From: a virus
Lineage: Duplodnaviria; Caudoviricetes
Length of the DNA stretch: 64,000 bases
Strand: one strand, 5' to 3'
IMG/VR virus record: IMGVR_UViG_3300045015_000053
The notes beneath the pieces were generated by a model that was not told the origin of the DNA, ran no database searches, and was given only the letters and a program-made list of their open reading frames with translations. Both the position numbers and the translations under genes were made by a program. Below, piece after piece: positions 10,730-58,142 of this stretch; within the stretch, counting starts at the first letter, position 1; every line of letters starts with the position of its first letter.

Positions 10730-11140
10730 ATGCGTAAGAAACTGACCAAGACGACGACCGAGGCAATCGGCTATCTGACGCAGCAGGACGCACTGGATAA
10801 GTGCTACACGCAGGAGAACAACGCCTTCTTCGACGGGCGTTACGGTCGGCCGGACGATCTCCGCAAGGTGCGGTGCGTGATCAACAACATGAAACCCGGC
10901 ACCGAGATCCGCGCCCTCATCTACAAGTACAACTACCACGGGACGGTTTTGGGGTTCCGCTACACGCCCCGACGCGGCTGGACGATGGGGATGCTGCTCA
11001 AGAGTGGCAGCGTCAAGGACGTGAGCATCGACCCCCGCGACTGGTTCGACGGGGAGAAGACGGTCTTCGTTTACTGCGGGAAGACCGTCTACGCGATCTA
11101 CAGACACGGCTACCGACTCGCACTCGAACCCGTCGCTTAA
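10730..11140 (+). CDS. hypothetical protein
   Basis: GAGGTG RBS. Confidence 0.8.
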   Translation: MRKKLTKTTTEAIGYLTQQDALDKCYTQENNAFFDGRYGRPDDLRKVRCVINNMKPGTEIRALIYKYNYHGTVLGFRYTPRRGWTMGMLLKSGSVKDVSIDPRDWFDGEKTVFVYCGKTVYAIYRHGYRLALEPVA

Positions 11141-13503
11141 TCGCAACACAGATCCAAGATGTCGCTCAGATACGGGTTGGTTGATTCTGCGGCGACCACA
11201 CGACGTTTCTTCTTCTTAGGCACCACCGCTCCGACTGGCTTCGTCGCCGGCCCGGACCCCGCACCGCCACCGATTGCGGCAGCGTACTCGTCGTCAAACG
11301 CCTTCCGTCTCGGACCAATGTGTTGGTCCAGGGCGGAAGGGGCAGTAGTCATCGGCAGCGGAATGCGGCCGGACAGTTGGTCGTTCGGCGCACGCCCCTT
11401 GTCAGTCGCCAAGTAGTGGGGCGAACGGTCGTCCCGCTTGAACGGCGTAAGCCCGTCAAAATCTTCATCTTGGTACTTCTTGGCGACGGCGGCGTGGTAG
11501 GCGTCCTTGTCGGCGTCTTCCCACTTGATCGCCCGACGTTTTTCGGTCGGCTTGACACCTTTCATCAGTTCTTCGCGGGTGATGCCGGCACGCTCTGCGT
11601 CACGGATCTCACGGTTAATACGATTGGACAGGTCGCGTCTCGCTTGCGCTTGGAACACACTTCGGGTGAGTTCCATTGGAGACAGACCGTCCGGGTTTTC
11701 GTCACTCTTGGAATCCGGCGTTTGCGCGAGGTCATATATTGCGTTCGACCGACGCCGTTGAGCGTTCGGGCCGAAGTAGTTCACAATCCCCTGTTCGATC
11801 CTATCGGCACGAGCCAGTAGTTCTTCTTTCTCCTCGCCCGTTGCTGTAGCCGCTTTAGCACGCAGTTCAGCCACCAGTTTGGTGTCTTTTGCCTGACGAG
11901 CCGCAACGGTCTTCAAACGCTGTGGGTGGGCTTTAGATGCCGCGATGACCCATCCCTTGTTCTCCTCTTCGTATCGCAGGTGCGGGTCGTCGGGCTGGAC
12001 GACGAACACTTGCTTGCCCTGTCCGTTCGATTGAACGTACTTGGCGTCACCCTTTGCGGCCAGACCGATGATCACGCCGGTCTTGTTCTTGCCCTTTTGC
12101 ATGTCGTCAATGAACCGCAAGTCGTGAATGTCGCCGCTCACGATGCGGTAAAGCTTGCCGTTCTCACCACGCCACACCTTCGGCAGCTTGTACGGGCCGT
12201 TTTCGGCTCCGCTATTCGGATCAACGGCGTACTCTTTTCCCTTTGGGTCTTCTTTGAACTCAGGGGCGACGTACTCGGTGTTGCTTTTCCTGGCCCGCGT
12301 TTGGGCGCGAGCTTCCATAGCCCTCTTCGCTTTGGCGGGGTCGTAGTTCTTCTCCGCGAACGCGAACACCATAGCGACGTTGCCGCCGTTGTCCAGCAGT
12401 TCTTCCATCTGGTGCAGGTTGGTCTTCTCGGAATAAGAAAACGTGAGGTGGTAGTTCGCCGGCCACTTGCCGCCGCCCGACTTCATGGCCTCGGCGTGCT
12501 TCATGGCGCGGCCGATGACCTTCGTGTAGTCGTAGAACTGCACCTCTGGGAAGTGACAGAAGATCGACTTCTTCTCGTTGGGGTCGGGCGGGCAGTTCAT
12601 TGCACGAGCTTTCGGGCTGCGTTCCACAGCCCCCTCGTACCCCGGCAGTTCTTTGCCTTTGGTCTTCGGGTTCTTGCGTTGGTAGGTGAACCAGTATTTT
12701 TCGGTTTCCCACGGAATGTCGGACGTGCCGTTCAGTCTGAGGCCGAAGTTGAAGCCCTGACTGTGCGATTCCGCTGCGGCGTGTTCGACTTCTTGGGCGA
12801 GCCTCGTGAGGGCCGCGTTCTTGTTATAGGCGAACATGAACGTGCGCCGCATACGACCGGACGTTTTGACGCCCATGAAGCCGGGGTTGCCGGCCACGTC
12901 GAGACAGGACGCTGCACATTCTGGGGTGTGAGCGGAGCAGGTGTTGCACCCTGAGAAGCCGGCCGGCAACAAGTGCATGACGGCGTTCTTCATCGGCCGC
13001 ATCATGCCGTGGTGCGGGTTTGCGACGGCGTGCGGGTATCCCTTTTCGGTCTTCGGGTTGTTGTCGCCGGGGGAAACCAGAGACAAGCCGGCGTGCGGAT
13101 TCTTCAGACGCCGCTTTTTATCCCTACGCGGGCGGAACATGTCTTTGATGTCGTCTTGGTGCTGGTCCCACTGTTGACGGGTGAAATTGACTAGCTTGTT
13201 TTTCTCGTCATCCTTCTTGGTTTTTGACGTGCCGACATCAACATCGGCGTCCACCGAGTCGTCATCTTCGTCGTCCTCGACTTCGACCGGCTCCTCTCGC
13301 TTCGCTTTCTTCCTCTTCGATTCGACAACGAGGTTGCCGGCCATACTTGCAAATTCTGGCAGGTTTTCCATAACGTCATCATAGTCGGTGGAAATGCCGA
13401 GTTGCTCGTTGAACGAGAGGTGATAGGCCCACTCCTCGTCGGTCAAACGAAGATCATCGGCCCAGTCTGTTTCGCGGAAGAAGTCTCTGAAGTTCATTTT
13501 CAT
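11137..13503 (-). CDS. GP88-domain protein with an N-terminal capsid-targeting-like peptide
   Basis: CSAHTPECAASCLDVAG, LRLNGTSDIPWE, FPEVQFYDYTK, YHLTFSYSE, GDIHDLRF, IIGLAAKG; N-terminus MKMNFRDFFRE. Confidence 0.75.
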   Translation of the reverse strand: MKMNFRDFFRETDWADDLRLTDEEWAYHLSFNEQLGISTDYDDVMENLPEFASMAGNLVVESKRKKAKREEPVEVEDDEDDDSVDADVDVGTSKTKKDDEKNKLVNFTRQQWDQHQDDIKDMFRPRRDKKRRLKNPHAGLSLVSPGDNNPKTEKGYPHAVANPHHGMMRPMKNAVMHLLPAGFSGCNTCSAHTPECAASCLDVAGNPGFMGVKTSGRMRRTFMFAYNKNAALTRLAQEVEHAAAESHSQGFNFGLRLNGTSDIPWETEKYWFTYQRKNPKTKGKELPGYEGAVERSPKARAMNCPPDPNEKKSIFCHFPEVQFYDYTKVIGRAMKHAEAMKSGGGKWPANYHLTFSYSEKTNLHQMEELLDNGGNVAMVFAFAEKNYDPAKAKRAMEARAQTRARKSNTEYVAPEFKEDPKGKEYAVDPNSGAENGPYKLPKVWRGENGKLYRIVSGDIHDLRFIDDMQKGKNKTGVIIGLAAKGDAKYVQSNGQGKQVFVVQPDDPHLRYEEENKGWVIAASKAHPQRLKTVAARQAKDTKLVAELRAKAATATGEEKEELLARADRIEQGIVNYFGPNAQRRRSNAIYDLAQTPDSKSDENPDGLSPMELTRSVFQAQARRDLSNRINREIRDAERAGITREELMKGVKPTEKRRAIKWEDADKDAYHAAVAKKYQDEDFDGLTPFKRDDRSPHYLATDKGRAPNDQLSGRIPLPMTTAPSALDQHIGPRRKAFDDEYAAAIGGGAGSGPATKPVGAVVPKKKKRRVVAAESTNPYLSDILDLCCD

Positions 13504-13532
13504 CTATCTGGCTCCTCGGTTGTCTTTTCGGG

Positions 13533-13539
13533 TATATAG
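13533..13539 (-). promoter_or_regulatory. late-promoter-like box CTATATA
   Basis: Upstream of the minus-strand 13503 gene; same family as the CTAAATA copies. Confidence 0.5.
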
Positions 13540-13600
13540 CCATAAGAATTCCTCTTCTGATTTGCCGTTTTTGGTTTATCGTGAAAGTGGAGGAGTTGCG

Positions 13601-17175: not shown

Positions 17176-17206
17176 AAAAAGCCCCGGTTCGACACCGGGG
17201 CTTTTT
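17176..17206. terminator. bidirectional terminator between convergent genes
   Basis: AAAAAGCCCCGGT-tcgac-ACCGGGGCTTTTT. Confidence 0.85.
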
Positions 17207-17517
17207 CACGCGACCGCTGTTATTAGCGACACGATGATGGAAACTATCTGAAGGATCTGCGGGAGGTTCTTCTGAAGCCAGTCGAAGAATCCGCCTTTGG
17301 ATGGTGGCGGCGGTTCGGCCCCAACCTCCATTGCGGCGAGCGCCACGGTCTTGTTGTCGAGGTCGTCAACCGCGTCGGCCGCTTGTTTGCGGCTGAAGCC
17401 GTGCTGACGCCGCAAACGGGCTTCCACGCGGTTGCGGATGACGTGTTGGAAAAGCGGGTGGTTCGAGTAGGCGTCCAGCGGGCTGGCGGCGACTTGAACA
17501 ATTTCGGTGTCTGACAT
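17206..17517 (-). CDS. hypothetical protein with a C-terminal amphipathic/TM helix
   Basis: GGFFDWLQKNLPQILQIVSIIVSLITAVA; ATAAATA box upstream. Confidence 0.75.
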   Translation of the reverse strand: MSDTEIVQVAASPLDAYSNHPLFQHVIRNRVEARLRRQHGFSRKQAADAVDDLDNKTVALAAMEVGAEPPPPSKGGFFDWLQKNLPQILQIVSIIVSLITAVA

Positions 17518-17548
17518 AATGCCTTTCGATTGGAGTTATGGGACACCG

Positions 17549-17555
17549 TATTTAT
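17549..17555 (-). promoter_or_regulatory. T4-late-like box ATAAATA
   Basis: One mismatch to T4 TATAAATA; upstream of the 17517 gene. Confidence 0.55.
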
Positions 17556-18124
17556 TACTCTCGGAAGTAAATTGCCATCCCCTCGCCGTGTCCTTCGAGC
17601 TTGCGGGCGTACCACCCCGGCAAGTTACACGTCCGGTCGAACGACCAGCCTGGGCCGTGATCGAGACTCGTTTCCGCCACGTCGTGAACCAAAATGTACC
17701 CGTGTTTCGACAGACGCAACATGGCCTGTGTCATGTCCAAGTGCGACGGTAGATCCCCGTGGTCGCCATCGACGTAGATCAGGTCGAACACGTCGTCTTT
17801 GCTCAACGATTTCCAGAAGTCCCAACTCGATGATTCGACAAACCTGAACGGGCAGTCCAAATCTTTGAGTCCTTTGGGCCGATCTTTCAGCTTGATGTCA
17901 ACGCCCGTGTAGTCGCCGAACACGTCGTGGCAGTACAGTAGCACGTCGGCCGAATCGACCCCGATTTCCAGTACGCGGGGCTTCTCGAACATCTCGGCTA
18001 CCGCCCGAATGCAGTGGCGGCGGTCCCAGAATTCGAGACGCGATTGCGGCCAGTTCAATTCGGGTTTCTTGTTCCAAAATTTGGCTCGGTCCATTTTGTC
18101 TTTCTCAAGCCATTTGCTTGGCAT
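17555..18124 (-). CDS. class I SAM-dependent methyltransferase (Methyltransf_24-like)
   Basis: VLEIGVD, GVDI, FDLIYVDGDH, GYILVHD. Confidence 0.85.
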   Translation of the reverse strand: MPSKWLEKDKMDRAKFWNKKPELNWPQSRLEFWDRRHCIRAVAEMFEKPRVLEIGVDSADVLLYCHDVFGDYTGVDIKLKDRPKGLKDLDCPFRFVESSSWDFWKSLSKDDVFDLIYVDGDHGDLPSHLDMTQAMLRLSKHGYILVHDVAETSLDHGPGWSFDRTCNLPGWYARKLEGHGEGMAIYFRE

Positions 18125-19051
18125 TAGTGTTCTTGTTCTGGACGACGTTATCTATGTTGTCTTTCAGATGGAGGAGGAATTCTTTCTGCTTGCCGTTTTT
18201 GATCGCCAAGTTCAAAGAAGCAAGAAGCTCCAGGGCGTCTTTGCTGTATTGTTCTTTGTTTTTCATCGCGTGTTTCAAGACTTCGCCCAGATTGTCTTCG
18301 GTAGCCAACTCCCCGGTCAGCCTCGCGTAGTCCCTCTTCAAAGCGGCCAGACGGACACCGATCTCTTCAAAATCGAAATAATAGTTCTCCGTATCCGAAG
18401 CCTTCTTCCCTCCGAGGACGCCGCCGGCCGCGAAGCTCATCATCCTGTCCTGGGTGGAGTGTGACAGTTCGTGAGCCAGAGTGTGGATTTTGCTAACGTC
18501 GGACACAACGCAGTATTTCTGCGATTTGCCGTTTACTGTCACAACGCCACAGAATCCGTTGACCTGTTTCTTCCCCGCGTTAGAGTTCCATCCGGCCTTT
18601 TGGAAAATTCGTTGGGATCAATTCCGACAACAACTGGCACCGGCTTGTCCAGTAGTTTCGCGTCCATCGCCGTCCCGTCGAGCCGAAAGGTTTGTTTGGA
18701 CGCGCGGTCTACCGAAGCCTTGTATAGCTTGTCGTTACCATAAAGGGGTTGGATTATTTGTGATGGGGTAATCATCTTGATGTTGTTTCTGCCGATGTTG
18801 ACATGCGGGTACTCTTTCTTCAAAGCGACAAGTATGTAATCGACTTCTTGCTCCCCGCTTTTCACCATTTGTTGTTTCGGTTCGGCAGATTGTTGTGCTT
18901 GAGGTGCGTGAGGTGACAGAGACATACCCAAACCCGTCGCTCCCAGTGTCGCAAGTCTGGCAGCGTTTTTGAAAAAACCCTCTTCAAGCGTGAAGTACTC
19001 TAAAGTAATTTCCGCGTTGACGAATTTGCTGAACTCTTTGGCACCTATCAC
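18105..19051 (-). CDS. putative HExxH metallopeptidase with a capsid-targeting-like N-terminus, split by a -1 frameshift near 18600
   Basis: ORF 19051-18539 (MIGAKEFSKFVNAE..., hydrophobic stretch) continues in the -1 frame as FQKAGWNS...HTLAHELSH. Confidence 0.65.
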
Positions 19052-22000
19052 TCTTCTCCTCCCGGCGGTCGATACCCAGGCTGGCCCTTCAGCTTCACGA
19101 TGTGCAGTTGGTCCATAGCCCGCGTGTAGGCGACGTAGCGTGCGTTCTCCTCTTGGAGTTTGTCGGCTTCCTTCGTGGCTCGCGGGTGCGGGAACTGGTC
19201 GTCACGCAGAATGTAGACGCGAGAGAACTCCAAGCCCTTCGACTTGTGAGCCGTCGTCAACACCACCGGGTGTTCCTTCTTCACCTTCTCGTTGAATGCT
19301 CTCAGGTCGGCCTCGTTGTCCTGAACGTCGAAACCGCCCAGGCGAGCCTTGAGCCACTTCTTGAAGTCTTTGACGGTCGGCATCGGTTTGGCCGCGACCG
19401 CCCGCATCATCGCGTCGTGCGCCCGGTCGTCCATCTCCTCCACGTCACGCGACATCCCGGTGAACGCCGCCAGTGCGGAGTAAAGAGCTTCCGAGGTGGC
19501 GTTCATTTCCTGTAGGTACGCCTTCTTGGAGTTCATCGAACTGAACCGCTCGTTTTCTTTCTTCTGGTACTCTTCGAGCTTCACGCCGAGGTTCGGCCGA
19601 CCGCCCGCTCGCGGGTGCGGGATCGCCGGGGAATCGTCCCTCATCTTGGCCCCCTTCAAGACCTTGCCGATGTGACGCATCAATTCGTTTGACACGTCGC
19701 GACCCACGATGATGAACGGCACGCCGTCGCCCAACATCTTCAACGCGGCCTGAACCAGCGGTTCGTTGGTACGGGCGATGAACGCCGTTTCCGGCATTTT
19801 CGGCCCGCCCTTTTTCGAGTCCTCGTGTTCCTTCTTGAGCGTGGTGAAGACCTCGCCATATTCCTTGTCTTGGTTTGTGACTTCGCCACCACCGCCGTTC
19901 GGGTACTTGCTCTCACTGTGTTTGAGGCCGGTAACGTGGCCCATGTTGTTGACGTGGTCGAGAATGCCCTTCCGCGAGCGGTAGTTCGTCGTCAGCGTGT
20001 GTTCCGTGTCCTTGTCGCCCGAAAGCTCTTTCAGGGTCCGGCCGAGGCTGTGGAAGGCGTCACCGTCAGCGCCACGGAAGCGGTAAATGGCTTGGTTCGG
20101 GTCGCCTACCGCCACGATCTTCGCGCCGGCACCGTGCAACTTCTCCAGCATCAGCTTTTGGCACGGGTTGAAGTCCTGCACCTCGTCGGCGAGGACCACG
20201 TCGTAGTGCGGCCAGTGCATGTCGTGGGCGTTGATCGCGGCGAACCAGATGTCGTCCGAGAAGTCGCGCATGCTGCCCAGGTCGTATTCCATGCCCTTGA
20301 AACTGAGGGTCTGCGTCGTTCCCTTCGGCAGACTAGCCTTCAGCAGCCACTCGGCTGCCTCAGCGATCTCGTCCTTAAAGTTCTTGCCCATGAAGTCGAA
20401 GCCGTAGACCTTCTTCAGAGCGGCCAGAACTTCCGTGACCATGCTGCTCGAACGGTACTTCCTGATGCGTTCTTTGATTTCGGCCAGCCCGGTATCGAGG
20501 TCGTAACCCTTGAACAGCTTTTCGAGTTCGGCCTTGACGTGGTTGCCGTCTTTTCGCGGATCGACGCCGTAAGCTTTCGCCAAGTCAGCGACCTTCTGCG
20601 AGACTTCCTTGAACATATAGCGGATGGAGTGTGCGCAGCTTTTCGCGGCCGTCGTTGAGTATTCCCCAATCGGCATCTTCTCGATGATGGCGTCGGCGGT
20701 CGCGTCTTCAACGATGCCTAGTTTCTTCAGCACCTCGTTGAACTGCGATCCGTCCACGATTTCGCCCATTTTGCTTCGCGGCATCGGCGACTTTTCTTCC
20801 TCGTCCTCGTCTTCCGAAGCCTTGTTCCGCTTCTTGTTGAGTACCTCGATCATCCGCTCGGTCTGGTCGATCCGGCTGACATTCTCGTTCGACTTCAGCA
20901 AGTTGCCGAGGAAGCCGTTCGTGGTGCGAACGTCAACCCAGGAGGTTGGGAACTTCTCTTGAGCCTCGACCTTGTTCTTGGTGTTGAACACCAGATACAG
21001 CCAGCGTTCGCCCGGCTTGCCGTATTTCCACGCCAAGTGCTTCAACATCGTCGTGTTGTGTGTTACGACGCAGTTTTCTGTGACGTACAAGTTGTCTTTC
21101 GCGTCAACCGCAATGCATTGACACGGTTTTTTGCCAATCGAAGTGATTGACTTGATGACCCTAGACGGCTGATACTTTGTTTTGGGAGTGTACTTCTCCT
21201 GTTTCCTTTTCAAAGAAAAGGGATTGCCAGAGATTTTGATGTACACTCGGTAGCAAGGCTTGCCTGATTTTTTGACCCCTTTGTATGTGTAACTCGTTTT
21301 CTTGTGGGTGATTTTCCCGGTTCCGCCCAGTGACTCAACGAGGAATTTAATGTCTTTGGCAAGACGATACGAAGCGGTAGGGTAGAAAATCGTGTGGGTT
21401 CCGACTTCTCCATCTGTGTCGAGAAGTCCGCTCAACACTTTCGCTCTTGTCTCAACTGTATTGAATTTGTAAATGTCTGGAACAAATTTATTGTCGGACC
21501 CCATTCTCCACAAGCCTAGTTTTTTGATCTCTGCCACAATTTCGTTCTTCCGGCCTTTGATGCCGCTTGAAATACGATAATCGCAGCCATATCCTGTCGG
21601 CCGGCTTTTCAAAGCAGGAGGCAGTAACCGATCAACGCTTTCGACTATTTCTTTGTCTTCCGATGAGTAGGACACGCAGCCGGTTCTGAAACTCCCGTCA
21701 CCCAGAAGCACGCCCATTAAATACGGATCAATGATTGTCAGTTGCGAAGCAAACTCGACGTTTTCGACCATTGGAACATAGTGTTTTGGTTGTTTTCTGT
21801 AGAGCAAATCGCCAGCAATTTCTTTGGTAGTTAGGACTTTGCCATAAGAGAAAAGAGGTATTCCCTTTTGTTGACAGTAGACTCTTTCTCGTTTGCATTC
21901 TGTCAGCCAAAGGTGATCTTCAGAGCATTCCACAATGGACCCGTCCATAAATCCGACTTCGACCACTTCTTGCATCCCTTGAGGGAAGACTCCAATAACT

Positions 22001-23019
22001 TTGTGTGGTTTGCCGTCACGTCCAATGACCAGATTATTGACTTTAATGTCGCCCATCCTGATCCAGCCTTTTGGGGTCAAGATTTTGGAATCAAGTGGTT
22101 GAGCTTTGCCCGACCCGGCCAGAGCGTTGATCATCATGTGATCCTGGCTCTTGCTGGACATCATCTGCTCGAACCGCGCGTCGATCCGTCGCTGTTCGTC
22201 CGACAATTTCTCGTGTTCGAGGACGTGCTTTTTCTTGTCCGCGTCGTTCGGCTTGCCCTTCGACAACTTGCCCTCGACCAAATCGTGCAACTCGGCCAGA
22301 CTCGGCGCGGAGTAGATGCTCTTGCCGTCATCCTGTTTGACCGACTGCACCACGTTCGGGAGGTCGGACTTGGTAGTCGCGGCCATACGCTGGCCGCCGA
22401 ACGTCCAGATCTCCCAAGCGCCGTTCTCGGCCTCGACAACGCCCACGTCTTCGTCGGCCTTGATCGTTTCGATGTCCTGCTTGGTTTTGGCGTAGATCCA
22501 CTTCTGGCCCTTAGCAGGTGCGGCCGATGGCTTTGCTTGAGTTTGAGCTTGTTGTGGTTGTTGCGGCTGTGTGGCTCTGTGGGTGGCGGCGACTTGTCGG
22601 AGAGCTTCGATGGAGTCGGCCATTACCGGGGTGTTCCCGTCGCGGACGGACTTGACGTAGTTCGCCAGTTCTTTTTCAGACACGAAGGCGCGGGCGTTCG
22701 TGTCGAGGTGGACGACTTCCCACGTCCCTTCACGGGGTTTTGAAACGCCCACGTCATCGCCGGCCTTCAATTGACCGACCGGCTTGATGATTCGACTGTA
22801 GATCCAGCGACCCGTGGGCTGTTTGTTGGTTTCCAAGAGGCACCTTGAGAGGATTTCGTCCTGAATTTCCAGATAAAATGCGTCACCCAGGTCGCTGCGG
22901 TGGTAGTTTTCAGCGATCCATTTTAGGTCGGAAACTGACGTTTCGCTGCCGAAATAGAAGTTCTTGTAGAACCGCGAGCGGCATTCTGAAACGAGCCAGT
23001 TTTTGAAGTCGAGTTTCAT
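19048..23019 (-). CDS. SF1 UvrD/Rep-like helicase with intein and a capsid-targeting-like N-terminus
   Basis: ALAGSGK|TT, ADEVQD, AVGDPNQAIYRFRGAD, NYRS, TAHKSKGLEF, YVAYTRA; N-terminus MKLDFKNWLVSE (alternative start 23043). Confidence 0.92.
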   Translation of the reverse strand: MKLDFKNWLVSECRSRFYKNFYFGSETSVSDLKWIAENYHRSDLGDAFYLEIQDEILSRCLLETNKQPTGRWIYSRIIKPVGQLKAGDDVGVSKPREGTWEVVHLDTNARAFVSEKELANYVKSVRDGNTPVMADSIEALRQVAATHRATQPQQPQQAQTQAKPSAAPAKGQKWIYAKTKQDIETIKADEDVGVVEAENGAWEIWTFGGQRMAATTKSDLPNVVQSVKQDDGKSIYSAPSLAELHDLVEGKLSKGKPNDADKKKHVLEHEKLSDEQRRIDARFEQMMSSKSQDHMMINALAGSGKAQPLDSKILTPKGWIRMGDIKVNNLVIGRDGKPHKVIGVFPQGMQEVVEVGFMDGSIVECSEDHLWLTECKRERVYCQQKGIPLFSYGKVLTTKEIAGDLLYRKQPKHYVPMVENVEFASQLTIIDPYLMGVLLGDGSFRTGCVSYSSEDKEIVESVDRLLPPALKSRPTGYGCDYRISSGIKGRKNEIVAEIKKLGLWRMGSDNKFVPDIYKFNTVETRAKVLSGLLDTDGEVGTHTIFYPTASYRLAKDIKFLVESLGGTGKITHKKTSYTYKGVKKSGKPCYRVYIKISGNPFSLKRKQEKYTPKTKYQPSRVIKSITSIGKKPCQCIAVDAKDNLYVTENCVVTHNTTMLKHLAWKYGKPGERWLYLVFNTKNKVEAQEKFPTSWVDVRTTNGFLGNLLKSNENVSRIDQTERMIEVLNKKRNKASEDEDEEEKSPMPRSKMGEIVDGSQFNEVLKKLGIVEDATADAIIEKMPIGEYSTTAAKSCAHSIRYMFKEVSQKVADLAKAYGVDPRKDGNHVKAELEKLFKGYDLDTGLAEIKERIRKYRSSSMVTEVLAALKKVYGFDFMGKNFKDEIAEAAEWLLKASLPKGTTQTLSFKGMEYDLGSMRDFSDDIWFAAINAHDMHWPHYDVVLADEVQDFNPCQKLMLEKLHGAGAKIVAVGDPNQAIYRFRGADGDAFHSLGRTLKELSGDKDTEHTLTTNYRSRKGILDHVNNMGHVTGLKHSESKYPNGGGGEVTNQDKEYGEVFTTLKKEHEDSKKGGPKMPETAFIARTNEPLVQAALKMLGDGVPFIIVGRDVSNELMRHIGKVLKGAKMRDDSPAIPHPRAGGRPNLGVKLEEYQKKENERFSSMNSKKAYLQEMNATSEALYSALAAFTGMSRDVEEMDDRAHDAMMRAVAAKPMPTVKDFKKWLKARLGGFDVQDNEADLRAFNEKVKKEHPVVLTTAHKSKGLEFSRVYILRDDQFPHPRATKEADKLQEENARYVAYTRAMDQLHIVKLKGQPGYRPPGGEE
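21055..22104 (-). mobile_element. class 3 intein (350 aa) with a LAGLIDADG endonuclease, inserted in Walker A
   Basis: Starts AQPLDSKILTP, ends VVTHN before Thr; HLW, CQCIAV and THN give the W-C-T triplet; LLGDG and LLDTDG motifs; lower GC. Confidence 0.92.
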
Positions 23020-23049
23020 GTTGTCCTTGTTCTGCTTTCCCATCACGGT

Positions 23050-23056
23050 TATGTAG
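23050..23056 (-). promoter_or_regulatory. late-promoter-like box CTACATA
   Basis: 6 nt upstream of the ATG at 23043. Confidence 0.5.
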
Positions 23057-26392: not shown

Positions 26393-26463
26393 CCACCTTT
26401 GGGCCAGTGGCTGGCCAGCGATCTCTAAAATCGCGCACATCGGTTCGATTCCGATAAGGTGGG
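26393..26463 (+). tRNA. amber-suppressor tRNA, anticodon CUA
   Basis: Full cloverleaf: acceptor CCACCTT/AAGGTGG, D stem GGCC/GGCC with GG in the loop, anticodon stem GCGAT/ATCGC with loop CT-CTA-AA, 4-nt variable loop, T arm ATCGG-TTCGATT-CCGAT, G73; CCA not encoded. Confidence 0.9.
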
Positions 26464-26528
26464 CTGAATCTAAAACAAAATTTGCATTGGTCAGAACGAC
26501 AATCGGTTCGATCCCCACAAGGTGGGCT
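26464..26528 (+). pseudogene. degenerate tandem copy of the tRNA 3' half
   Basis: ATCGGTTCGATCCCCACAAGGTGGGCT vs ATCGGTTCGATTCCGATAAGGTGGGCT, plus a TCTAAAA remnant. Confidence 0.6.
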
Positions 26529-26542: not shown

Positions 26543-27100
26543 ATGAACGCTAATGATCTCGTCAACGTATTGTCCGGCACGACCACTCGCAGGGGCTTCC
26601 TCGCCGAGACAATGGGTGTTGTGACCGCTCCGTTCTTCGCCACTGACAACCTGCTGGCGGATGTCCCTCTCGTTCAGGAACACATCGTCGCCCGCGCCGA
26701 CCGCCCGAACGGGAACAAACGGATCTACCCGCTCTCCGTGCTGCAAAGAGTTGTCGCAGATTCGGCCGACGCGGTCGCGCACAGACAGATGATCGGTCAG
26801 TTGGGGATGCCCGCCGACAGCATCATCCACTTCAGTCAGGCGAGCCACATTGTTAGGTCGCTCAAACTGAGTGACTTCGGCCCGCAGATCGGGTGGCAGT
26901 TGATCGCCGAAATCGAACTGCTCGCCACCCCCTGCGGCGTCATCCTGAAGAAGCTGTTGGCATCGCCCGGACAGGTGGCGTTCAGGACGGCCGGGGTGGG
27001 CCACGGCAAGATCAACGATGACGGCATTCTGGTGATTGACGATTCTTACAAGCTGGTCGGCGTTCACGCTGTTCCGGCAAAAGACGCCGTGTGGATTTGA
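26543..27100 (+). CDS. T4 gp21-like prohead protease homologue with catalytic residues replaced and a Tat-like signal
   Basis: ADRPNGNKRIYP, GQLGMP (vs GELDHP), SQASHIV, IELLATPCG, VAFRTAG (vs GVSSRG); N-terminal TRRGFL. Confidence 0.75.
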   Translation: MNANDLVNVLSGTTTRRGFLAETMGVVTAPFFATDNLLADVPLVQEHIVARADRPNGNKRIYPLSVLQRVVADSADAVAHRQMIGQLGMPADSIIHFSQASHIVRSLKLSDFGPQIGWQLIAEIELLATPCGVILKKLLASPGQVAFRTAGVGHGKINDDGILVIDDSYKLVGVHAVPAKDAVWI

Positions 27101-31035: not shown

Positions 31036-32115
31036 TCAGTCCGAATCGGCGATCACGACCCACGCATTGTGGGTCGTGTCCCATTTCGGCAGTTCGGCGA
31101 TGCCACTCTGTTCGTAGCCGAAGCTGATCTTGAAGTCGTCCCCGTACCGGCCTTTGGTCTTGGTGTTAACCTTGCCCATGAGCCGGACATTTCTTTTCAT
31201 GTACTCCGAATACCCGTAGTTGCTTATGCCATTGTAAAAATCATCGATGTAGTCAGGTACGTCGAGTTCGATCACGCCCTGGCTCCAGCCGTGGTATTGC
31301 ACCATCGCTCTGTCGCCGTCCCGCATCAGTTTCGGCCATTTTACATCGGCCATAAACCGTTTCACGAATTGCGGTTTGGTCATCTTTGTTTCGTCGGCCA
31401 GATCTTCGTGTACTTCCGGTGGTTGGAACTCGGCCATCGCCTCTGCCACTTCGGGTTCGCGTAGGAAGTCGATCTTCTGGGCCTTCTCGCCACGCAGTTT
31501 GTTGATGGCGTCTTTCATCTCGTCAACTTTGCCGCCCATCCTCTGAACCCACTCCTTGATCACCTCGGCCATAACCGCCGCGAAGATCTTGTCGGCGATG
31601 TTGTCGTAGCCGTTCGCGAGGCCGGCGACGAACCGCTTGGTCCCTTCCGCCCAAGCCGCACTGCCCACGTCGTCAAAGAGTTCTCCGTCAACCTCGAAGA
31701 CGGCGTCAATGATCGCTTCCGTCGTCTCGTCGTCCAGTTCTTCTTTTTCTTTGAGGTGCTTCCGCAGTTCTTCCATGTGCTTGTTGACTTCGAGGACGTA
31801 AGCCGCTGTTTTACCGGCACGCCACACCTTCGACCCACCCGACACAGCCCCGGATACGATCTTCCAGATACTTGTTGCCGCGCCTACAACGTTGCCCGTC
31901 GCCGCACTAGCCGCCAACCCGGTGACGCCTTTGGCGAGGCTCCAGGCGTCACCTGCGGCACCGGCCACGTCTTTGTTCCTCATCGCGTGTGCGGTCGCCA
32001 CACTCGAAGTCGATGGCTTGCCCAAGATCTTGTCCTTCAAGTCTTTCAGCCTGCCCTCGTCAATGAGCGGATCGCGGTTCTGAACGTATTCGTTGAATGA
32101 TAGTGGTCACGCCAT
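31036..32115 (-). CDS. putative capsid-internal protein; natural start at 32115 is interrupted by TGA at codon 3
   Basis: GGAGG-ctaa-ATG GCG TGA CCA CTA TCA TTC AAC GAA... is in frame with ORF 31036-32040. Confidence 0.65.
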
Positions 32116-39067: not shown

Positions 39068-39652
39068 ATGCAAACGTCTTTCCTTTTGTGGATCGAAAAC
39101 AAAGATCCCGAACTCGCCCGTCTGTTGGAAGCGGAATGGGGCCGACGCGACCGCAAGGGCCGCGTGGGACTCATCGCCGGTTCCGCCGCCGCTGCCGCCG
39201 CTGCTCTGGCTGGAGCTTGGTGGATGGGCGGCAGCGATGCAAAACCCACTTCCCACGCCGCGCCCCTGCCCGCACAAGTTGCTAAGAAAGAAGCCTCTCC
39301 GAAGCCGGTTTCGACGGAATTAGACTGGTACACGGGGCCGGACAAAGAGTATATTTTCAAGTACGCTTGTGACCCGTCGAACAACGGAAACACTTACTTC
39401 CGTTACTATGGTAGAGACGGGGCGACACAAGAGGGTTGGATCGCCAGAGTTCAGATGCCGGCTTCCGACACACAACCTCTGCGAGACGAAGACCTCGAAG
39501 CCCGGTTCAAGAGGCTCGCCCACGACGCCACGGACAAGATGAAGGACGTAAAGTGGCAGATCATAGCAAAAGGCCGAAAGAATCCGTACCCCAGAGAGGC
39601 GGGGACGGTGGAGATCGTGCTGTACGCCAAAAAACCAGTCGGAGAAAGATGA
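39068..39652 (+). CDS. putative capsid-internal protein with a TM segment
   Basis: MQTSFLLWIENKDPELARLLEAE; Ala-rich hydrophobic stretch. Confidence 0.7.
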   Translation: MQTSFLLWIENKDPELARLLEAEWGRRDRKGRVGLIAGSAAAAAAALAGAWWMGGSDAKPTSHAAPLPAQVAKKEASPKPVSTELDWYTGPDKEYIFKYACDPSNNGNTYFRYYGRDGATQEGWIARVQMPASDTQPLRDEDLEARFKRLAHDATDKMKDVKWQIIAKGRKNPYPREAGTVEIVLYAKKPVGER

Positions 39653-43316: not shown

Positions 43317-43990
43317 AGTTCGCGGGGCGACATAATCTTGTCGTACTTGTCGTAGTTGATGTAATCCCTCATCGCCGAACACAGGTATTCGGCCGTCAGT
43401 TCAGAGATGCCCCGGTCGTTCCTGATGTTGCGGGACAGTTCGATCTGCATGCTCGACACTTTGTTGTCGTACTTGTGCTTGCGGAAGAATTGGTTCATGT
43501 TGTTTCTGGCCCACCCACTGTACATGCCGCCGGACTTCCCGACCCACACGTCCATGCCTTCGTTCTGCAACAGCGTGTAGAACAGGTTCTTCCTCCACGG
43601 TTCGCAACTGAAGCTGTTGGGCGACCCCGCGCCGTAGCCGATCACGGCGTCAACGCCGGGTTGAGCGGCCATACCGTGGATGAAGAAGATGTGGCAGAAG
43701 GGGTTCTTTTTCAGTATCTCGTTCTTGAGCGTCCAGAGCGGAATCAAGAACTCGTCAAACACCACATCGACCATGTGGGTCTGGTTATTACAGTCGGCCG
43801 TTTCGGTCGCGTAATCGTAAGCACTGCCCCGTCGCCAGCCGTGGTTGATCACCGCGCTGCACTGCAACAGATCGACCAGATGGTGGGCGACGATGTCCGT
43901 GTTCACGTCGTCGCCTTTGGCCGCGTGAGGAGCGACGATCAGAATGGGCGACTTGCGTCCCCGGTGAATGCCAACTCGTTCCAAATACAT
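43313..43990 (-). CDS. N-formylglutamate amidohydrolase / poly-gamma-glutamate hydrolase-like zinc hydrolase
   Basis: IVAPHA..DD..TD, FFIHGM, MQIELSRNIR. Confidence 0.7.
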   Translation of the reverse strand: MYLERVGIHRGRKSPILIVAPHAAKGDDVNTDIVAHHLVDLLQCSAVINHGWRRGSAYDYATETADCNNQTHMVDVVFDEFLIPLWTLKNEILKKNPFCHIFFIHGMAAQPGVDAVIGYGAGSPNSFSCEPWRKNLFYTLLQNEGMDVWVGKSGGMYSGWARNNMNQFFRKHKYDNKVSSMQIELSRNIRNDRGISELTAEYLCSAMRDYINYDKYDKIMSPREL

Positions 43991-44007
43991 TGTACCCCTC
44001 TGGTATT

Positions 44008-45591
44008 CTAGCCCTTTTTCCTTACCGCGAACCAGTCCCAGTCGTATTTGTTGAGGTAGCTACAAACGTGGCTCCCCAGTTCTTTTGAGTAGCTCTCTTT
44101 GCAGTCTTCCCAACCGGCCAGCCTCAACATGCTCGCCCACCACTCCATTGATCTTATGCAGAGGTGGGTCGGATCTTCGTTTTCATTCGCACGCTTCTGT
44201 CTGTCAAATGAGTTGGCCGTATCTAGTACCGCAAAGAAAGTAGCTCCAGACCGACAGACGCGATTCAACTCTTTCAACACGAACGGAACCAGTTCCGGCC
44301 TCATGTGTTCGAGTACCTGTTGCGAGTGAACGCCTGCGAACTTTTGATCCTCGAACATGTGCATGTTAGCGCCGTCGCCAACGTAAAGTGGGATTTCGGG
44401 CCATTTCTCTCGGCCCAGTTTGACGGTGTATTCGTTCAGGTCGATTCCAGACGGTTTGCAGCCGTTTTCTTGAAGTCCCTTCGCAATCGCGCCGCACGCA
44501 CAACCGAACTCAAGTACCTCTTTGCCTCTCCACTTCATGCAGTCGGCGATCCATCGGCCGTACTCTCGCTGCCAATCTCCGTAGGCGGCATAATCACACC
44601 CCGCCTCTTTGTGCTGTTCGTAGTAGGCTCGGTCATACGCGGTGGACCTGAGCAGTTTGGACTGTTGCATCGGGTTGCCGCAGTACGGAGCCGTTTTCAG
44701 CTTCTCGACAACCGTTTCCAGCAGCGTTGATCTGAAGTCGGCGTAGCGGCGGTATTGGTACTTTCGCTCGAAGTATTCGATGCCGAACGGACGGTTCTTG
44801 GCCTTCATGAACTTGCCGGCGTCGGACGGGATCAGGTGCAGAACGTCGCTCAACTCGAAGAAGTGAATCGGGTGGTGCCTGACCCAAATGCCGATTGACG
44901 GCGTTTGAGTAGCGCCGGCGACGTGTAACGGCCCGCTGTCAACTCCGATGAACAGTTTCGACTTCGAGATCAACGCGGCGATTGTCGCCATGCAGCCGGT
45001 GCTGGTGCCGCCCCACATCGGGTGAAGTTTGTCCGGGTTGAAGATGGTGCGTTGATCGGGGAGCGGGCTTCTCCGGTCCCAGTCGAGGATTACCGGCGTG
45101 TAGTCGTTCCGAACGAGGTGTCTGCACACTTCGCCGACATCATCGTGGTTGATGTTCTTCTTGTCCTGGCTGCTCGTACCCTGATAGTGGATCGTGACGA
45201 TTCCCTTCGACGGCGGCAACGACTTCAGGTAATCGTCAACGAGACTGAGGTGTTGTCGTTCGGGGTCGATCTGATACCTGAACAGCGACTCGTCGGGAGC
45301 GATTTTGAACTCTTCCAGAAGAGATCTGGTGACTTTGCCGCTCGGCAGGTTTTCGTAGCACTGTTGCGGCTCGAACCATTTTGTCGATACGATCTGGTCG
45401 AACGTGAGTTTGGGTGGCCGCGAGCCGCGAACGAACGAGTTTTCGCAAAGTTGTCTGAGGCCGGTGTGTTTGCCAACGGGGATCTCCGTAAACACCTTCC
45501 AGTCGGGTCGGTATTTACGGAGGTGTTTGAGTACGATGGAGAACTGAGCGGTGTCGCCGAGGCCGTGGTTGTGGCTGATAAGTACGTTCAT
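44008..45591 (-). CDS. GT9 (heptosyltransferase-like) glycosyltransferase fused to a class I SAM methyltransferase
   Basis: HGLGD, FIGVDSGPLHVAGAT; VLEFGCACG, GIDLN, QVLEH. Confidence 0.88.
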   Translation of the reverse strand: MNVLISHNHGLGDTAQFSIVLKHLRKYRPDWKVFTEIPVGKHTGLRQLCENSFVRGSRPPKLTFDQIVSTKWFEPQQCYENLPSGKVTRSLLEEFKIAPDESLFRYQIDPERQHLSLVDDYLKSLPPSKGIVTIHYQGTSSQDKKNINHDDVGEVCRHLVRNDYTPVILDWDRRSPLPDQRTIFNPDKLHPMWGGTSTGCMATIAALISKSKLFIGVDSGPLHVAGATQTPSIGIWVRHHPIHFFELSDVLHLIPSDAGKFMKAKNRPFGIEYFERKYQYRRYADFRSTLLETVVEKLKTAPYCGNPMQQSKLLRSTAYDRAYYEQHKEAGCDYAAYGDWQREYGRWIADCMKWRGKEVLEFGCACGAIAKGLQENGCKPSGIDLNEYTVKLGREKWPEIPLYVGDGANMHMFEDQKFAGVHSQQVLEHMRPELVPFVLKELNRVCRSGATFFAVLDTANSFDRQKRANENEDPTHLCIRSMEWWASMLRLAGWEDCKESYSKELGSHVCSYLNKYDWDWFAVRKKG

Positions 45592-45596
45592 CCGCC

Positions 45597-45603
45597 TATT
45601 TAG
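45597..45603 (-). promoter_or_regulatory. late-promoter-like box CTAAATA
   Basis: 5 nt before ATG 45591, the same spacing as at 57555. Confidence 0.65.
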
Positions 45604-45691
45604 CCGCGTCCCAGAACTCTTCCGCTTTCGTCATGGCGGCGATGATGTTGTCCGCGCCGGTGGCCATGCCAGTCGGCAGTCAACCACGTCT

Positions 45692-46066
45692 TCATTTGAC
45701 TTCTCTGTGTTCGTGACCAATGGGGACGCTCATAACCCCGTGTTCGCGACAGGATCGGATCTCGTTCGGATCGTTGTCGTAGTGAAGGCTGACGCCAAGT
45801 TCTTTGGCGAACGGGCCTTTCGGCATGTGGGCAGTATAGACCACTTTGAGGTGATCCAGCCCCAGAATCTTGAGATGCTCGATCAGTACGATTCGGTCTG
45901 GTTTATTAACCCTGTACCACTCTTCTTTGTCGTGCGACGGATCGCGGGCGGTGAGGATTATTACCTCGTCTCCGAAAGCGATGTGATTGTGCAGGATCTC
46001 GCAGATGTGTTCGACGTGGTCGTGGACGCCGGAAATCGTGTCATCGAAGTCGAAACTAACCTTCAT
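45692..46066 (-). CDS. HAD-superfamily phosphatase-like protein
   Basis: MKVSFDFDDT (DxDxT), IILTAR, K, LHYDND. Confidence 0.8.
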   Translation of the reverse strand: MKVSFDFDDTISGVHDHVEHICEILHNHIAFGDEVIILTARDPSHDKEEWYRVNKPDRIVLIEHLKILGLDHLKVVYTAHMPKGPFAKELGVSLHYDNDPNEIRSCREHGVMSVPIGHEHREVK

Positions 46067-46731: not shown

Positions 46732-46933
46732 GTTGGCTCCTAAATACGGAATCCTATGCAGCAAATCGAGATTAACATTGTTGACCTGACCTCTGCCATT
46801 CTAGAGGTTCGTTCTTATTTCGCAAAGCGCGGAATTCGAGTGAACCTTGCCAAGAAAAAAGCGCAGCACAACTTTACAAGTGGCCCACTTTTGCCTATCC
46901 TGATAAAACCAACTGAACCGGGAGGGAGCAACA

Positions 46934-47257
46934 ATGGGCCACGTCTTTTTGAAAGAAGACGAGTTTCTGGCGGCGTCGGCCGAGATTCGGCGTAACCGCC
47001 ACGGCTACCGAGTCCAGCACGGCTCCCAAACCTATTACGTCTGGGCTTCCACTTCTACCCACGCGATGGGCCTCGTCGCCAAGCACACTCAGGCGATGAC
47101 TTCCGAGGTCTACACCCAACGCGAAATCAAACACAACGTCTCGGCCCCGTCAACCATTGACGCCAAGCTCGTTTCCTACGTTTCCGCGATGACTCCCGAC
47201 CAGCAGCAGAAACTTCGCGAAATCCTTCGCGCAATTCCAGAGACTCCGCAGTCCTGA
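46934..47257 (+). CDS. hypothetical protein
   Basis: GGAGGGAG RBS. Confidence 0.75.
   Translation: MGHVFLKEDEFLAASAEIRRNRHGYRVQHGSQTYYVWASTSTHAMGLVAKHTQAMTSEVYTQREIKHNVSAPSTIDAKLVSYVSAMTPDQQQKLREILRAIPETPQS
47229..47244 (+). promoter_or_regulatory. 16-bp motif, copy 3 (GCGCAATTCCAGAGAC)
   Basis: Identical to the copy at 51228; lies in the 3' end of a CDS. Confidence 0.65.
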
Positions 47258-54034: not shown

Positions 54035-54835
54035 ATGCCCGCCAAGAAGCCCGCCAAAGAAGTCGATCCGCTGGACGATTTCCGCAAGAAGATGAACCGT
54101 GAAAACCGCGCCAACAAGAAAGCGTTGGATGGCCTGAAGGCCAACAAGCACTTCAATGCTGAGACGGTCATGGCCGAGCTTTTCGCCGGTCTGGAATGCG
54201 GCTCCCTTCACATCGGTTGGGCGTTAGACAAGTTCTGGGGTCTGAAGGTCGCGGAGACGATGCCCAAGCTGCAAAAGATCTACGACGAGGCCGTGAAGCG
54301 GAACTACACCCGCGAGAACAACCTGTCCTTCAACGACATGGACGACAAGCTGTTCGTCATGCCGCACGACCAGTATTGTGTCCTCTGCCACGAGTTGCAG
54401 AGTTCCAACTACGTCTACGTCTGGGAACGGAACGCGCCGTCCAAGTTCCAGAAACTGCACGTCCGGCGTTACTTCGACGTACTGAAGGTCGAAGACAAGT
54501 TCGACAAGCAGGAAGAAGCCGAGTTCAAGAAAAAGGTTCGTGAGAAGGGCAAGCGTGCGGGGATCATCGCCGCGCAACGGTTCGTTGAGAACTACGCCGA
54601 CGACTACCCGGAAAATCCGTACCCGAAGCGGCTCTCGCTGGACAGCTACATCAAGGCCGGCTTCGAGATGAAGTACGGCGACTGCCGTGACGAGGGCTAC
54701 ATCCTGACGTGGGACCAGTTCCGCGACTCGGTTGATCGGTCGTACTACGAACACAGTCGGATCGAAGCAGTCCTCGACTGCTACATTCCGAGCATCGAAT
54801 ACGCACTCTTTGAAGAAGGGCGGGAAGAAGAATGA
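54035..54835 (+). CDS. hypothetical protein
   Basis: Long ORF with high GC3. Confidence 0.8.
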   Translation: MPAKKPAKEVDPLDDFRKKMNRENRANKKALDGLKANKHFNAETVMAELFAGLECGSLHIGWALDKFWGLKVAETMPKLQKIYDEAVKRNYTRENNLSFNDMDDKLFVMPHDQYCVLCHELQSSNYVYVWERNAPSKFQKLHVRRYFDVLKVEDKFDKQEEAEFKKKVREKGKRAGIIAAQRFVENYADDYPENPYPKRLSLDSYIKAGFEMKYGDCRDEGYILTWDQFRDSVDRSYYEHSRIEAVLDCYIPSIEYALFEEGREEE

Positions 54836-55605
54836 AGCTCACATTCGCCGGTGTCGGTTCGGCCTTCACCGACAGCCGTTACTGGCAATCGAACATGTTC
54901 TTCACCTCGAAGCAGGGGAAGAGATTGATGATCGATTGCGGCGGTGATGCCCGGTTCAGTTTCGGCGAACACGGCGCTACCAACCGCAACATCGGGGATT
55001 GGTCGGATGGCGTTTACATCAGCCACCTTCACGCCGACCACATCGGCGGGCTGGAGTGGTACGCCTTCTGCACCTACTTCAATCCCAACGTGTCGCGGCC
55101 CAAGTTGTTCATCGTGGACGAACTGGTCGATCCGCTGTGGGAGAGCTTGAAGGGCGGGCTGGCCTCGCTGGAAGGCAAGGTCATGACGCTCGAAGACTTC
55201 TTCGACGTGCGTGAGTTGCACATCAACAGCAGCTTCGTCTGGGAGGAACTGAACTTCACCCCGATTCAGACCGTTCACATTATGAACGGCATGGGGATCG
55301 TGCCTTCTTACGGGTTGCTCGTCAAAGAAAACGGCAACCCCGCGACCGCGTTCATCACCACGGACACGCAATACTGTCCGCGCCAGATCGAGCGATTCTA
55401 CGAACGCTCCAGCATCATCTTCCACGACGCCGAAACCGGCGCGAGACGGAGCGGCATTCACGCATACTACGACGACCTCAAGACGTTGCAAGCCGAACAC
55501 AAGGCGAAGATGTGGTTGTATCACTACAACCCCGACCCGACCCAAGAAGCCGAGGCAGACGGGTTCAAAGGGTTTGTGAAAAAGGGACAAACCTTCGAGA
55601 TCTAA
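54832..55605 (+). CDS. MBL-fold metallohydrolase, Apyc1 (anti-Pycsar)-like
   Basis: GVGSAF, LMIDCG, SHLHADHIGGLE, LWESLKGGL, TTDT, IFHD, GIHA, LYHY. Confidence 0.85.
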   Translation: MKLTFAGVGSAFTDSRYWQSNMFFTSKQGKRLMIDCGGDARFSFGEHGATNRNIGDWSDGVYISHLHADHIGGLEWYAFCTYFNPNVSRPKLFIVDELVDPLWESLKGGLASLEGKVMTLEDFFDVRELHINSSFVWEELNFTPIQTVHIMNGMGIVPSYGLLVKENGNPATAFITTDTQYCPRQIERFYERSSIIFHDAETGARRSGIHAYYDDLKTLQAEHKAKMWLYHYNPDPTQEAEADGFKGFVKKGQTFEI

Positions 55606-57512: not shown

Positions 57513-57526
57513 AAGACGGCTCGACA

Positions 57527-57561
57527 ATTTAGCCGCAGGAAACACATCCTGCGGCTAAATA
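57527..57561. promoter_or_regulatory. 14-bp inverted repeat whose right arm carries the CTAAATA late-like box
   Basis: ATTTAGCCGCAGGA-aacaca-TCCTGCGGCTAAAT; ATG 5 nt after the box. Confidence 0.7.
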
Positions 57562-57566
57562 GTTTC

Positions 57567-58142
57567 ATGAAAACCTTCGCAGAGTGGCTCGCCGTGGAAG
57601 CTCGCGCACCCAAGAACGAGTTGTTGCAATACGCACCCAACAAGAAGTATTTCACCATTTCTCCGCAATGGCACGACTTCTCTATTTGGTTTGAAAAGCA
57701 ACCGCCGTCCGACGCCGAACTCAGGATGATGGCCGAAATCATCAGCGGTCACGGATTCCCGACCAGAGTTGCCAAGACGGGCGAGCAATGGCCCTACAGC
57801 GGTGACAGGCGGTACGACGATCTGGCTGACGAAATCCGTCACAAGTGGGACGTTGCAGTTGATGACGCCGTCGAGGGCGTCCGAAAGTATCGCGCCGTTG
57901 TCGGCAGGAAGATCTCACACGGCACTCACCACGACGGCGGCGAGCGGATGCCATTCTATAACGACCAGATCGCCACCATCGTACACAACCTGCGATACGT
58001 CAAAGACGACCCCGAAAAAGCCAAGAAGATGTTCGACGCAATGGACCGCAACACCAAGTTCATTCTCGTTCACGACGCCGGTATGTTCACCTCGGACGGC
58101 GCATTGACTCCAGTCGCATCACAGTACCTCCGAGGCTACTAA
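57567..58142 (+). CDS. putative capsid-internal protein
   Basis: MKTFAEWLAVE closely resembles the T4 internal protein targeting sequence MKTYQEFIAE. Confidence 0.75.
   Translation: MKTFAEWLAVEARAPKNELLQYAPNKKYFTISPQWHDFSIWFEKQPPSDAELRMMAEIISGHGFPTRVAKTGEQWPYSGDRRYDDLADEIRHKWDVAVDDAVEGVRKYRAVVGRKISHGTHHDGGERMPFYNDQIATIVHNLRYVKDDPEKAKKMFDAMDRNTKFILVHDAGMFTSDGALTPVASQYLRGY

Follow-up and report, generated by a model that had tools for sequence, protein, structure and literature searches.

Six scattered genes in a 64,000-nucleotide stretch of tailed-phage DNA (Caudoviricetes; IMG/VR record IMGVR_UViG_3300045015_000053; hereafter the window) begin with similar short N-termini, here called the leader. 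They raise the question of whether the leader labels proteins for packaging into the phage head, as the capsid-targeting sequence (CTS) of T4 internal proteins does. An earlier note on this DNA had proposed exactly that. All six N-termini that it quoted were confirmed when the translations were re-read; five of the genes are sound, while the sixth, which starts at 32115 on the minus strand (genes without a name are referred to by their start), has a genuine in-frame TGA at codon 3. Its observation that four of the six oppose the early-gene direction was borne out by the gene call, in which these four lie on the minus strand and most genes on the plus strand. Beyond the leader, the six genes share no mutual similarity, and the leader's Phe falls at residues 3–7. 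The shared N-terminus is real and occurs far more widely than in the window. Based on gene sequences, we favour the reading that it is a T4-type capsid-targeting label marking variable, late-made, injected cargo, and assign this reading a probability of roughly 0.58.

The window is part of a huge phage of ~475 kb; the 191-aa product of 57567–58142 is also encoded on a 475,914-bp contig, and the window DNA is present in lake-water metagenome runs from 2018 and 2025. GC content is ~57%, and a codon-model gene call gave ~97 genes, the majority on the plus strand, with minus-strand islands at 11137–13503, 17206–23046, 31036–32115, 43313–46066, and 58139–59098. We extended the window via contigs encoding the edge proteins (L002, L004, L006, L007, and L008), to 111 kb in total and later by another 10 kb on the left, giving 48 kb of left flank and 9 kb of right flank overall. 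Four further leader genes were verified left of the window, up to 46 kb away. Relatives are labelled L001, L009, L012, L015, and G001. A megablast of the 11–24 kb portion against GenBank phages gave zero matches, and neither an exact 38-mer search nor a GP88 protein search, both in IMG/VR, yielded a relative.

The core of the leader consists of F-x-x-(W/F/Y)-(L/I/V/F) and a subsequent acidic residue, and its enrichment at N-termini is approximately nine-fold. Among window genes, the pattern F..[WFY][LIVFM] occurred within the first 12 residues six times, compared with 0.64 expected from its internal rate, although one of the six matches (28182) is merely a membrane helix and a looser hydrophobic pattern showed no N-terminal enrichment. 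The pattern was chosen after the data had been seen, and independent evidence was therefore sought. Orthologues in two relatives (~80% and ~55% protein identity) retain the leaders of the helicase, GP88, and 191-aa proteins, with Phe, Leu, Thr, and Lys codons changed synonymously. For example, an orthologue of the 191-aa protein (78% identity) keeps MRTFTEWLVTE despite synonymous changes in its Thr, Phe, and Leu codons, and the relatives' helicases (975 and 883 aa) retain MKLDFKHWLVEE and MNKLDFKRWLTAD. The distant GP88 orthologue begins MGQIYEFTFRHFLEA, and only the leader core, F-R-x-F-(F/L)..E, aligns across the first ~240 residues. Because F, W, and L persist through synonymous codon changes, selection evidently acts on the leader peptide itself. 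The resulting consensus is M-x-(T/N/K)-F-(K/R)-(E/D)-(W/F/Y)-(L/I/V/F)-x(0-3)-E.

Leader genes also share an upstream element. A TAnATA hexamer lies within 48 nt upstream of 8 of the 10 verified leader genes; the exceptions are 32115 and the helicase-coupled 19051. Leader and box (within 45 nt upstream) are associated across 166 genes (Fisher P = 1.6e-5). The box sits either 4–6 nt before the ATG without a Shine-Dalgarno sequence or ~30 nt upstream with one; the former placement implies nearly leaderless late mRNAs. Over 111 kb the hexamer is 3.7-fold depleted (28 copies compared with ~104 expected from composition), and 12 of the 28 copies fall within the 45 nt upstream of gene starts, which make up 3% of the sequence (0.8 expected, P = 1e-11). 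In relative L001, the orthologue of 57567 is preceded by a TAAATA box with box and spacing identical, and relatives' helicase genes carry TAAATA or TACATA at the equivalent position. In the head modules of G001 and L015, TAAATA also stands ~20–30 nt upstream of the genes for capsid, portal, protease, and terminase, which supports the box as a putative late promoter of the T4 TATAAATA kind. Terminator-like hairpins lie directly before several boxes (57532–57555 and 39026–39052), where they may shield individual late genes embedded in early operons. That box and peptide can be separated is shown by 44008–45591, which has a box without a leader; 46756–46995 (plus strand) likewise has a tccTAAATA box and no leader, and both are probably late genes of another class.

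The clearest view of the system comes from G001, a complete 527-kb relative with approximately 30 homologous proteins in common with the window and its fetched flanks. An unbiased gene call found the leader on 37 of its 780 genes, compared with 4.6 expected (P = 2e-21), and a box 3–7 nt before the ATG in 18 of the 37 leader genes against 43 of the 743 others (odds ratio 15, P = 5e-12). The G001 consensus is M-x-(T/K/D/N)-F-(K/R)-(E/D)-(W/F/Y)-(L/I/V/F)-(E/D)-E, and 25 of the 37 leaders place Phe at residue 3 or 4. Its leader genes include a NUDIX hydrolase, a P-loop kinase, a CCA/poly(A) polymerase-type enzyme, a PRTase-domain protein, and a Toprim protein; no homologue of any of the six window leader genes was found in G001. 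More broadly, the DNA pattern TAAATA-N4-6-ATG-Lys-x-Phe-x-Glu-Trp occurred in 28 IMG/VR contigs, compared with 7 when a scrambled version was used as a control. The matches encode 24 unique peptides, of which 17 have Leu and 22 an aliphatic residue at the unspecified position next to Trp; 19 go on to an acidic residue within five positions. Peptidase_S77, the family of the T4 prohead protease gp21, scored above its Pfam cut-off in four of the five huge records with a pattern match. Xanthomonas phage Xoo-sp13 was considered as a cultured model and set aside, with only a weak GP88 match and no leaders on 24 neighbouring genes.

The likeness to T4 is close. In the T4 record (NC_000866), ipI begins MKTFKEFTS, ipII and ipIII MKTYQEFIAE, alt MELITELFDE, and gp24 MAKINELLRE. 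The leader of 57567 matches IPI at M1, K2, T3, F4, and E6, a leader in relative L012 reads MKKFQEFLKY, and the form M-K-T-F-K-E-W-L-x-E nearly equals IPI and IPII/III at the residues mapped for targeting. In T4 IPIII, a ten-residue leader suffices for head targeting, with residues 4 and 7 serving targeting and residues 8 and 10 processing (PMC9026906); gp21 cleaves after L/I-x-E, and Asp in place of Glu blocks processing (PMC9026906). F4 and W7 are exact in 57567, and other leaders carry the same i/i+3 pair offset by 0–3 residues, retaining the aliphatic residue after the second aromatic and a Glu 2–6 residues beyond it. The proposed resemblance to the T4 signal is closer than anticipated and extends to the aromatics at 4 and 7, the aliphatic residue at 8, and a later Glu; the residue two before that Glu departs from the L/I-x-E rule.

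On the favoured reading of a T4-type label, each leader gene would form its own small late unit within early regions, often in the opposite orientation, started from the T4-late-like TAnATA box. The amphipathic leader would dock the protein onto the scaffolding core of a T4-type prohead, where a gp21-family (S77) protease would probably clip it after the first Glu, and the mature protein would remain in the head and be injected along with the DNA into the next host. We infer every one of these steps, from late timing through docking, cleavage, and packaging to ejection. The predicted cargo from the window comprises the superfamily 1 (SF1) helicase, the GP88-domain protein, the 191-aa protein, the membrane-type protein, and the 170-aa protein. 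Partners in the helicase operon, namely the 170-aa protein, the HELSH-bearing open reading frame (ORF), and the methyltransferase-like protein, might ride along. More tentatively, at somewhat short of even odds, huge phages with T4-type heads may use one leader of the T4 internal-protein kind as a general loading label, with ~5% of their genes forming a fast-changing injected "starter kit". If so, the kit would include a helicase, primase-like, RNA-handling, and nucleotide-handling enzymes, an ADP-ribosyltransferase, membrane proteins, and many unknowns.

Several results weigh against the T4-type label. The residue two before the Glu is A, V, F, W, N, I, or G, which fits neither the T4 L/I-x-E rule nor the S/A-x-E rule of phiKZ, and one helicase orthologue has Asp in place of the Glu. 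Some leader proteins contain membrane-type segments. In G001, 43 box-proximal genes lack the leader and 19 leader genes lack a proximal box. Moreover, with ~5% of G001 genes tagged, the set far exceeds any head cargo on record in breadth and would be compatible with a different late sorting signal as well. The window plus 48 kb to its left and 9 kb to its right did not extend to the genes for this phage's active protease, scaffold, and capsid; the window itself holds only a dead S77 paralogue.

This paralogue of T4 gp21 (26543–27100) has His replaced by Met and Ser-Ser by Arg-Thr when aligned with T4 gp21 and active homologues. By its residues, it is a derived, inactive S77 paralogue and not a protease, and we treat it as context, not cargo. 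It adjoins a tRNA(CUA) gene at 26393–26464. All of its relatives retain (D/N/T)-R-R-x-F-L-x-E-T at the N-terminus, with a hydrophobic stretch after it; this motif resembles a twin-arginine signal, yet in the alignment it corresponds to T4 gp21's LLIE-T propeptide region. Huge-phage contigs hold both ~170-aa dead and ~226-aa active gp21-type forms. A search with a profile of the dead S77 paralogues returned no second S77 protein from the 475,914-bp contig, although the phage may still have one. The nearest active S77 homologues stand in T4-type modules (TerL - Portal_T4 - S77 - scaffold-like - Gp23), and relatives L015 and G001 have an active S77 with Portal_T4 and Gp23. The G001 capsid protein matches the whole T4 superfamily (gp23-like). 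Leader genes occur in these modules as well: G001 has a 1292-aa leader gene between TerL and portal, and a small leader-type gene in the opposite orientation adjoins the portal gene of G001 and also that of L015. The G001 copy (428861, MITFKDYVQN) fits the aromatic core and stands outside the strict census, having no acidic residue within six positions. The portal proteins themselves (L015:4396-7011 and G001 431912, minus strand) have a common N-terminus, MAAW(Y/W)D(F/Y)FKLFQYA, that fits the leader's aromatic i/i+3 pattern.

The leader could instead sort or dock late proteins elsewhere than in the head interior, for example, at an assembly site, a phage-built compartment, a membrane, or a hub or chaperone, with the T4 likeness being convergent. 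The 37 leader genes of G001 include many for enzymes acting on nucleic acids and nucleotides (primase-like Toprim, NUDIX, kinase, and CCA-type), a set that would also suit a replication or repair compartment; some leader proteins have membrane-type segments, and the position of the Glu and its neighbouring residue match no defined protease site. We nonetheless consider such a destination unlikely, as the match to T4 IPI and IPII exceeds two aromatics (M1, K2, T3, and E6), the promoter box is common to leader and head genes, some leader genes lie inside the head modules of two relatives, and the leader co-occurs with S77 proteases; although no search was aimed at compartment proteins or importers, to our knowledge no N-terminal import signal has the leader's form. 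It is quite improbable that the conserved start is instead a translation or mRNA feature, in which the 5' coding sequence of nearly leaderless late messages is selected for initiation. Half of the leader genes do have a box 4–6 nt before the ATG and no Shine-Dalgarno sequence, but the peptide persists where codons have changed synonymously. The leader is also found on genes with a Shine-Dalgarno sequence (13503, 19051, L007:3024, and 19 of 37 in G001), and is missing from the 43 box-proximal genes of G001 and from three near the window (45591, L002:18712, and L006:2279). The leader is thus not a by-product of leaderless translation.

Two further explanations concern protein turnover and coincidence. 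A ClpS (L008:4385-4729) and a ClpX/ClpA-like AAA+ protein (L006:7338-8615) are encoded within 35 kb left of the window, and Phe, Trp, and Leu, which ClpS reads under the N-end rule, abound in the leader, such that it might be a degradation or timing tag limiting the lifetime of late proteins. However, ClpS requires such residues at the very N-terminus, and methionine aminopeptidase does not trim Met-Lys, whereas in the leader they stand at positions 3–8 behind Met-Lys with an i, i+3, i+4 spacing that suggests one face of a helix; a role as such a tag is therefore very improbable. That look-alikes were simply picked from among N-terminal amphipathic helices, which are common, is harder still to credit. 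The motif was indeed defined post hoc, the looser pattern is not enriched, and 28182 is simply a membrane helix, but evidence against coincidence comes from the enrichment, the box association, the conservation in orthologues, the independent census of G001, and the controlled IMG/VR scan.

Features of the window and its left flank that bear on the leader
Feature	Position	Strand	Details
GP88 (PF17338) protein, 788 aa	11137..13503	-	Leader MKMNFRDFFRE
TATATA box	13533..13538	-	29 nt before GP88 start; GAGGAG Shine-Dalgarno after box
Methyltransferase-like protein, 189 aa	17555..18124	-	Last enzyme of helicase operon; weak Methyltransf_24/23 matches below Pfam cut-off
Coupled ORF with HELSH, 145 aa	18105..18542	-	No leader
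170-aa protein	18539..19051	-	Leader MIGAKEFSKFVNAE; GTG start overlaps helicase stop (GTGA)
SF1 UvrD-type helicase, 1323 aa	19048..23019	-	Leader MKLDFKNWLVSE; LAGLIDADG intein in Walker A
TACATA box	23050..23055	-	~30 nt before helicase start; AAGGA Shine-Dalgarno between box and start
Predicted catalytically dead paralogue of T4 gp21 (Peptidase_S77)	26543..27100	+	Pfam 23 bits (cut-off 27); PDB 5JBL, E = 7.5e-4
Gene with leader-like PLSFNEYVQNRDPLIDE	31036..32115	-	Behind ATG GCG TGA; opal codon 32107-32109
Hairpin and TACATA box	39026-39052 and 39058-39063	+	Upstream of 39068; box 4 nt before ATG, no Shine-Dalgarno
194-aa protein	39068..39652	+	Leader MQTSFLLWIE, basic stretch, hydrophobic membrane-type segment (~33-55), 140-aa domain
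GT9-like and methyltransferase protein	44008..45591	-	ggcTAAATA 5 nt before ATG; no leader
Terminator-like hairpin, then ggcTAAATA	57532..57561	+	Box 57556-57561, 5 nt before 57567 ATG, no Shine-Dalgarno
191-aa protein, family unassigned	57567..58142	+	Leader MKTFAEWLAVE, closest to T4 IPI/IPII
MESFVKWGKE gene, 296 aa	left flank		GYF_2 domain; TATATA box ~34 nt upstream
MNFRVWLES gene, 241 aa	left flank, L008:8249		ART-PolyVal ADP-ribosyltransferase, 31.2 bits, exactly the Pfam cut-off; box 4-6 nt before ATG
MMNFDQFLDLVNE gene, 151 aa	left flank		Box 4-6 nt before ATG
MKNFRSWFEE gene, 334 aa	left flank		Box 4-6 nt before ATG

The helicase label given previously is well founded, with UvrD-helicase and UvrD_C at 58.5 and 60.8 bits, above the Pfam cut-offs, as is the GP88 label (99.6 bits, cut-off 24.4). 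The helicase intein splits the P-loop at GSGK / T, and both relatives' helicases lack it. The start at 23019 is correct: in the more distant relative, whose helicase begins MNKLDFKRWL, no ATG lies upstream, and a main start at 23043 was ruled out by the relatives' starts. An internal leader-like DFKKWLKA also occurs near residue 1218 of the helicase. In relative L009, the methyltransferase-like gene adjoins the helicase gene. The product of 19051 had been described as an HExxH protein and putative peptidase, a label that has to be withdrawn; no HExxH occurs in its 170 aa, the HELSH sits in the adjacent coupled ORF (18542–18105), and that ORF has no Pfam peptidase match. For the 191-aa protein, no match was found in Pfam, PHROG, or the ESM Atlas.

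The gene at 32115 reads ATG GCG TGA CCA CTA TCA TTC and is preceded by a strong GGAGG Shine-Dalgarno sequence. Its TGA is identical in contigs of four sequencing runs from separate studies (2018 and 2025). As TGA is the main stop codon (101 of 166 genes) and the codon is fixed across runs, the PLSFNEYV leader would be made only by read-through, or else the gene is broken at its 5' end. The TGA is thus either a stable 5' nonsense lesion or a means of controlling a late gene by low-level read-through. Frameshifting by +1 at GCG-TGA was rejected, as the +1 frame closes after ~20 codons. Neither the 19051 nor the 32115 gene was found at the syntenic place in L009, the relative of ~80% identity.

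A 257-aa protein at 54832–55605 (plus strand) is a candidate cyclic-nucleotide-degrading counter-defence enzyme, based on Anti-Pycsar_Apyc1 and Lactamase_B_2 matches in a precomputed table for an identical gene in L002. Besides ClpS and the ClpX/ClpA-like protein, the 40 kb left of the window encode a Ro60-like vWA protein (L008:1933-3726), a MotA/ExbB-like protein (L008:6324-6908), and a WGR-PARP protein (L004:4292-5872).

If the leader is a capsid-targeting label, injected proteins could be listed from sequence alone in uncultured huge phages, in which most genes have no assigned function, and the list would flag the genes most probably at work during the initial seconds of infection, for example those for anti-defence and takeover. 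It would also widen the T4 capsid-targeting principle from a few small internal proteins to dozens of enzymes, making the very large capsid a protein delivery vehicle, and the leader may supply new tags for phage-based protein delivery. The near-identity to the T4 CTS makes the leader directly testable in T4 itself. Even with another destination, there would be a peptide label on ~5% of a phage proteome together with a dedicated, often leaderless promoter arrangement, and we found no description of such a regulatory or sorting system. Similarly, the literature that we searched contained no account of huge phages with a CTS-like leader.

The T4 CTS, carried by IPI, IPII, IPIII, Alt, and gp24, is the closest known counterpart. 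In both cases, a leader on the ten-residue scale, with near-identical wording, precedes unrelated proteins, and the tagged set is variable; the internal proteins of T-even phages form a very varied anti-defence set with only the CTS in common (PMC3012670). An ADP-ribosyltransferase is tagged in each, T4 Alt being a precedent for a packaged enzyme of this type (PMC5512222), and a gp21-family lineage and a gp23-type head are present, here in relatives. The two systems differ in scale, with dozens of genes here (37 of 780 in G001) and a handful in T4, and in detail: position 7 is Trp here and Phe in T4, the Glu spacing is variable without an L/I-x-E rule, and the genes are scattered single late units, often nearly leaderless. 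The predicted cargo here, which is known from genes alone, also includes large enzymes and membrane-type proteins.

An injected helicase, part of what the earlier note had called an unusual cargo set, has a precedent in P1 DarB. This 250 kDa packaged anti-restriction protein is paired with helicase-type ATPase activity in Iyer et al. (PMC5512222) and is loaded by an N-terminal signal that needs more than nine residues, although the P1 Dar proteins have no consensus leader (PMC9024508). Like the predicted cargo here, DarB is an N-terminally loaded, very large enzyme paired with helicase-type activity, and it protects incoming DNA; the helicase operon here includes a methyltransferase-like gene. 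The methylase-helicase dyad of P1 DarB-like injected proteins is thus a loose parallel to this pair (PMC5512222), with the difference that the DarB-like methylase goes with SWI2/SNF2-type helicase activity (PMC5512222) and the helicase here is of the SF1 UvrD type. The giant phages phiKZ, 201phi2-1, and SPN3US have many internal head proteins and a gp21-related protease with a diverged paralogue (PMC5694885), and a paralogue occurs here as well. In contrast to the short leader here, their propeptides are mostly 80–160 residues long, share no short motif, and are cut after S/A/G-x-E. Lastly, the polyvalent proteins that Iyer et al. (2017) described from phages and conjugative elements are predicted to deliver injected ADP-ribosyltransferases, helicase-methylase pairs, peptidases, and nucleic-acid enzymes, a repertoire that recalls the ART-PolyVal protein tagged here. 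In polyvalent proteins, these domains are fused in one giant polypeptide, whereas here they are encoded by separate genes, each with its own leader.

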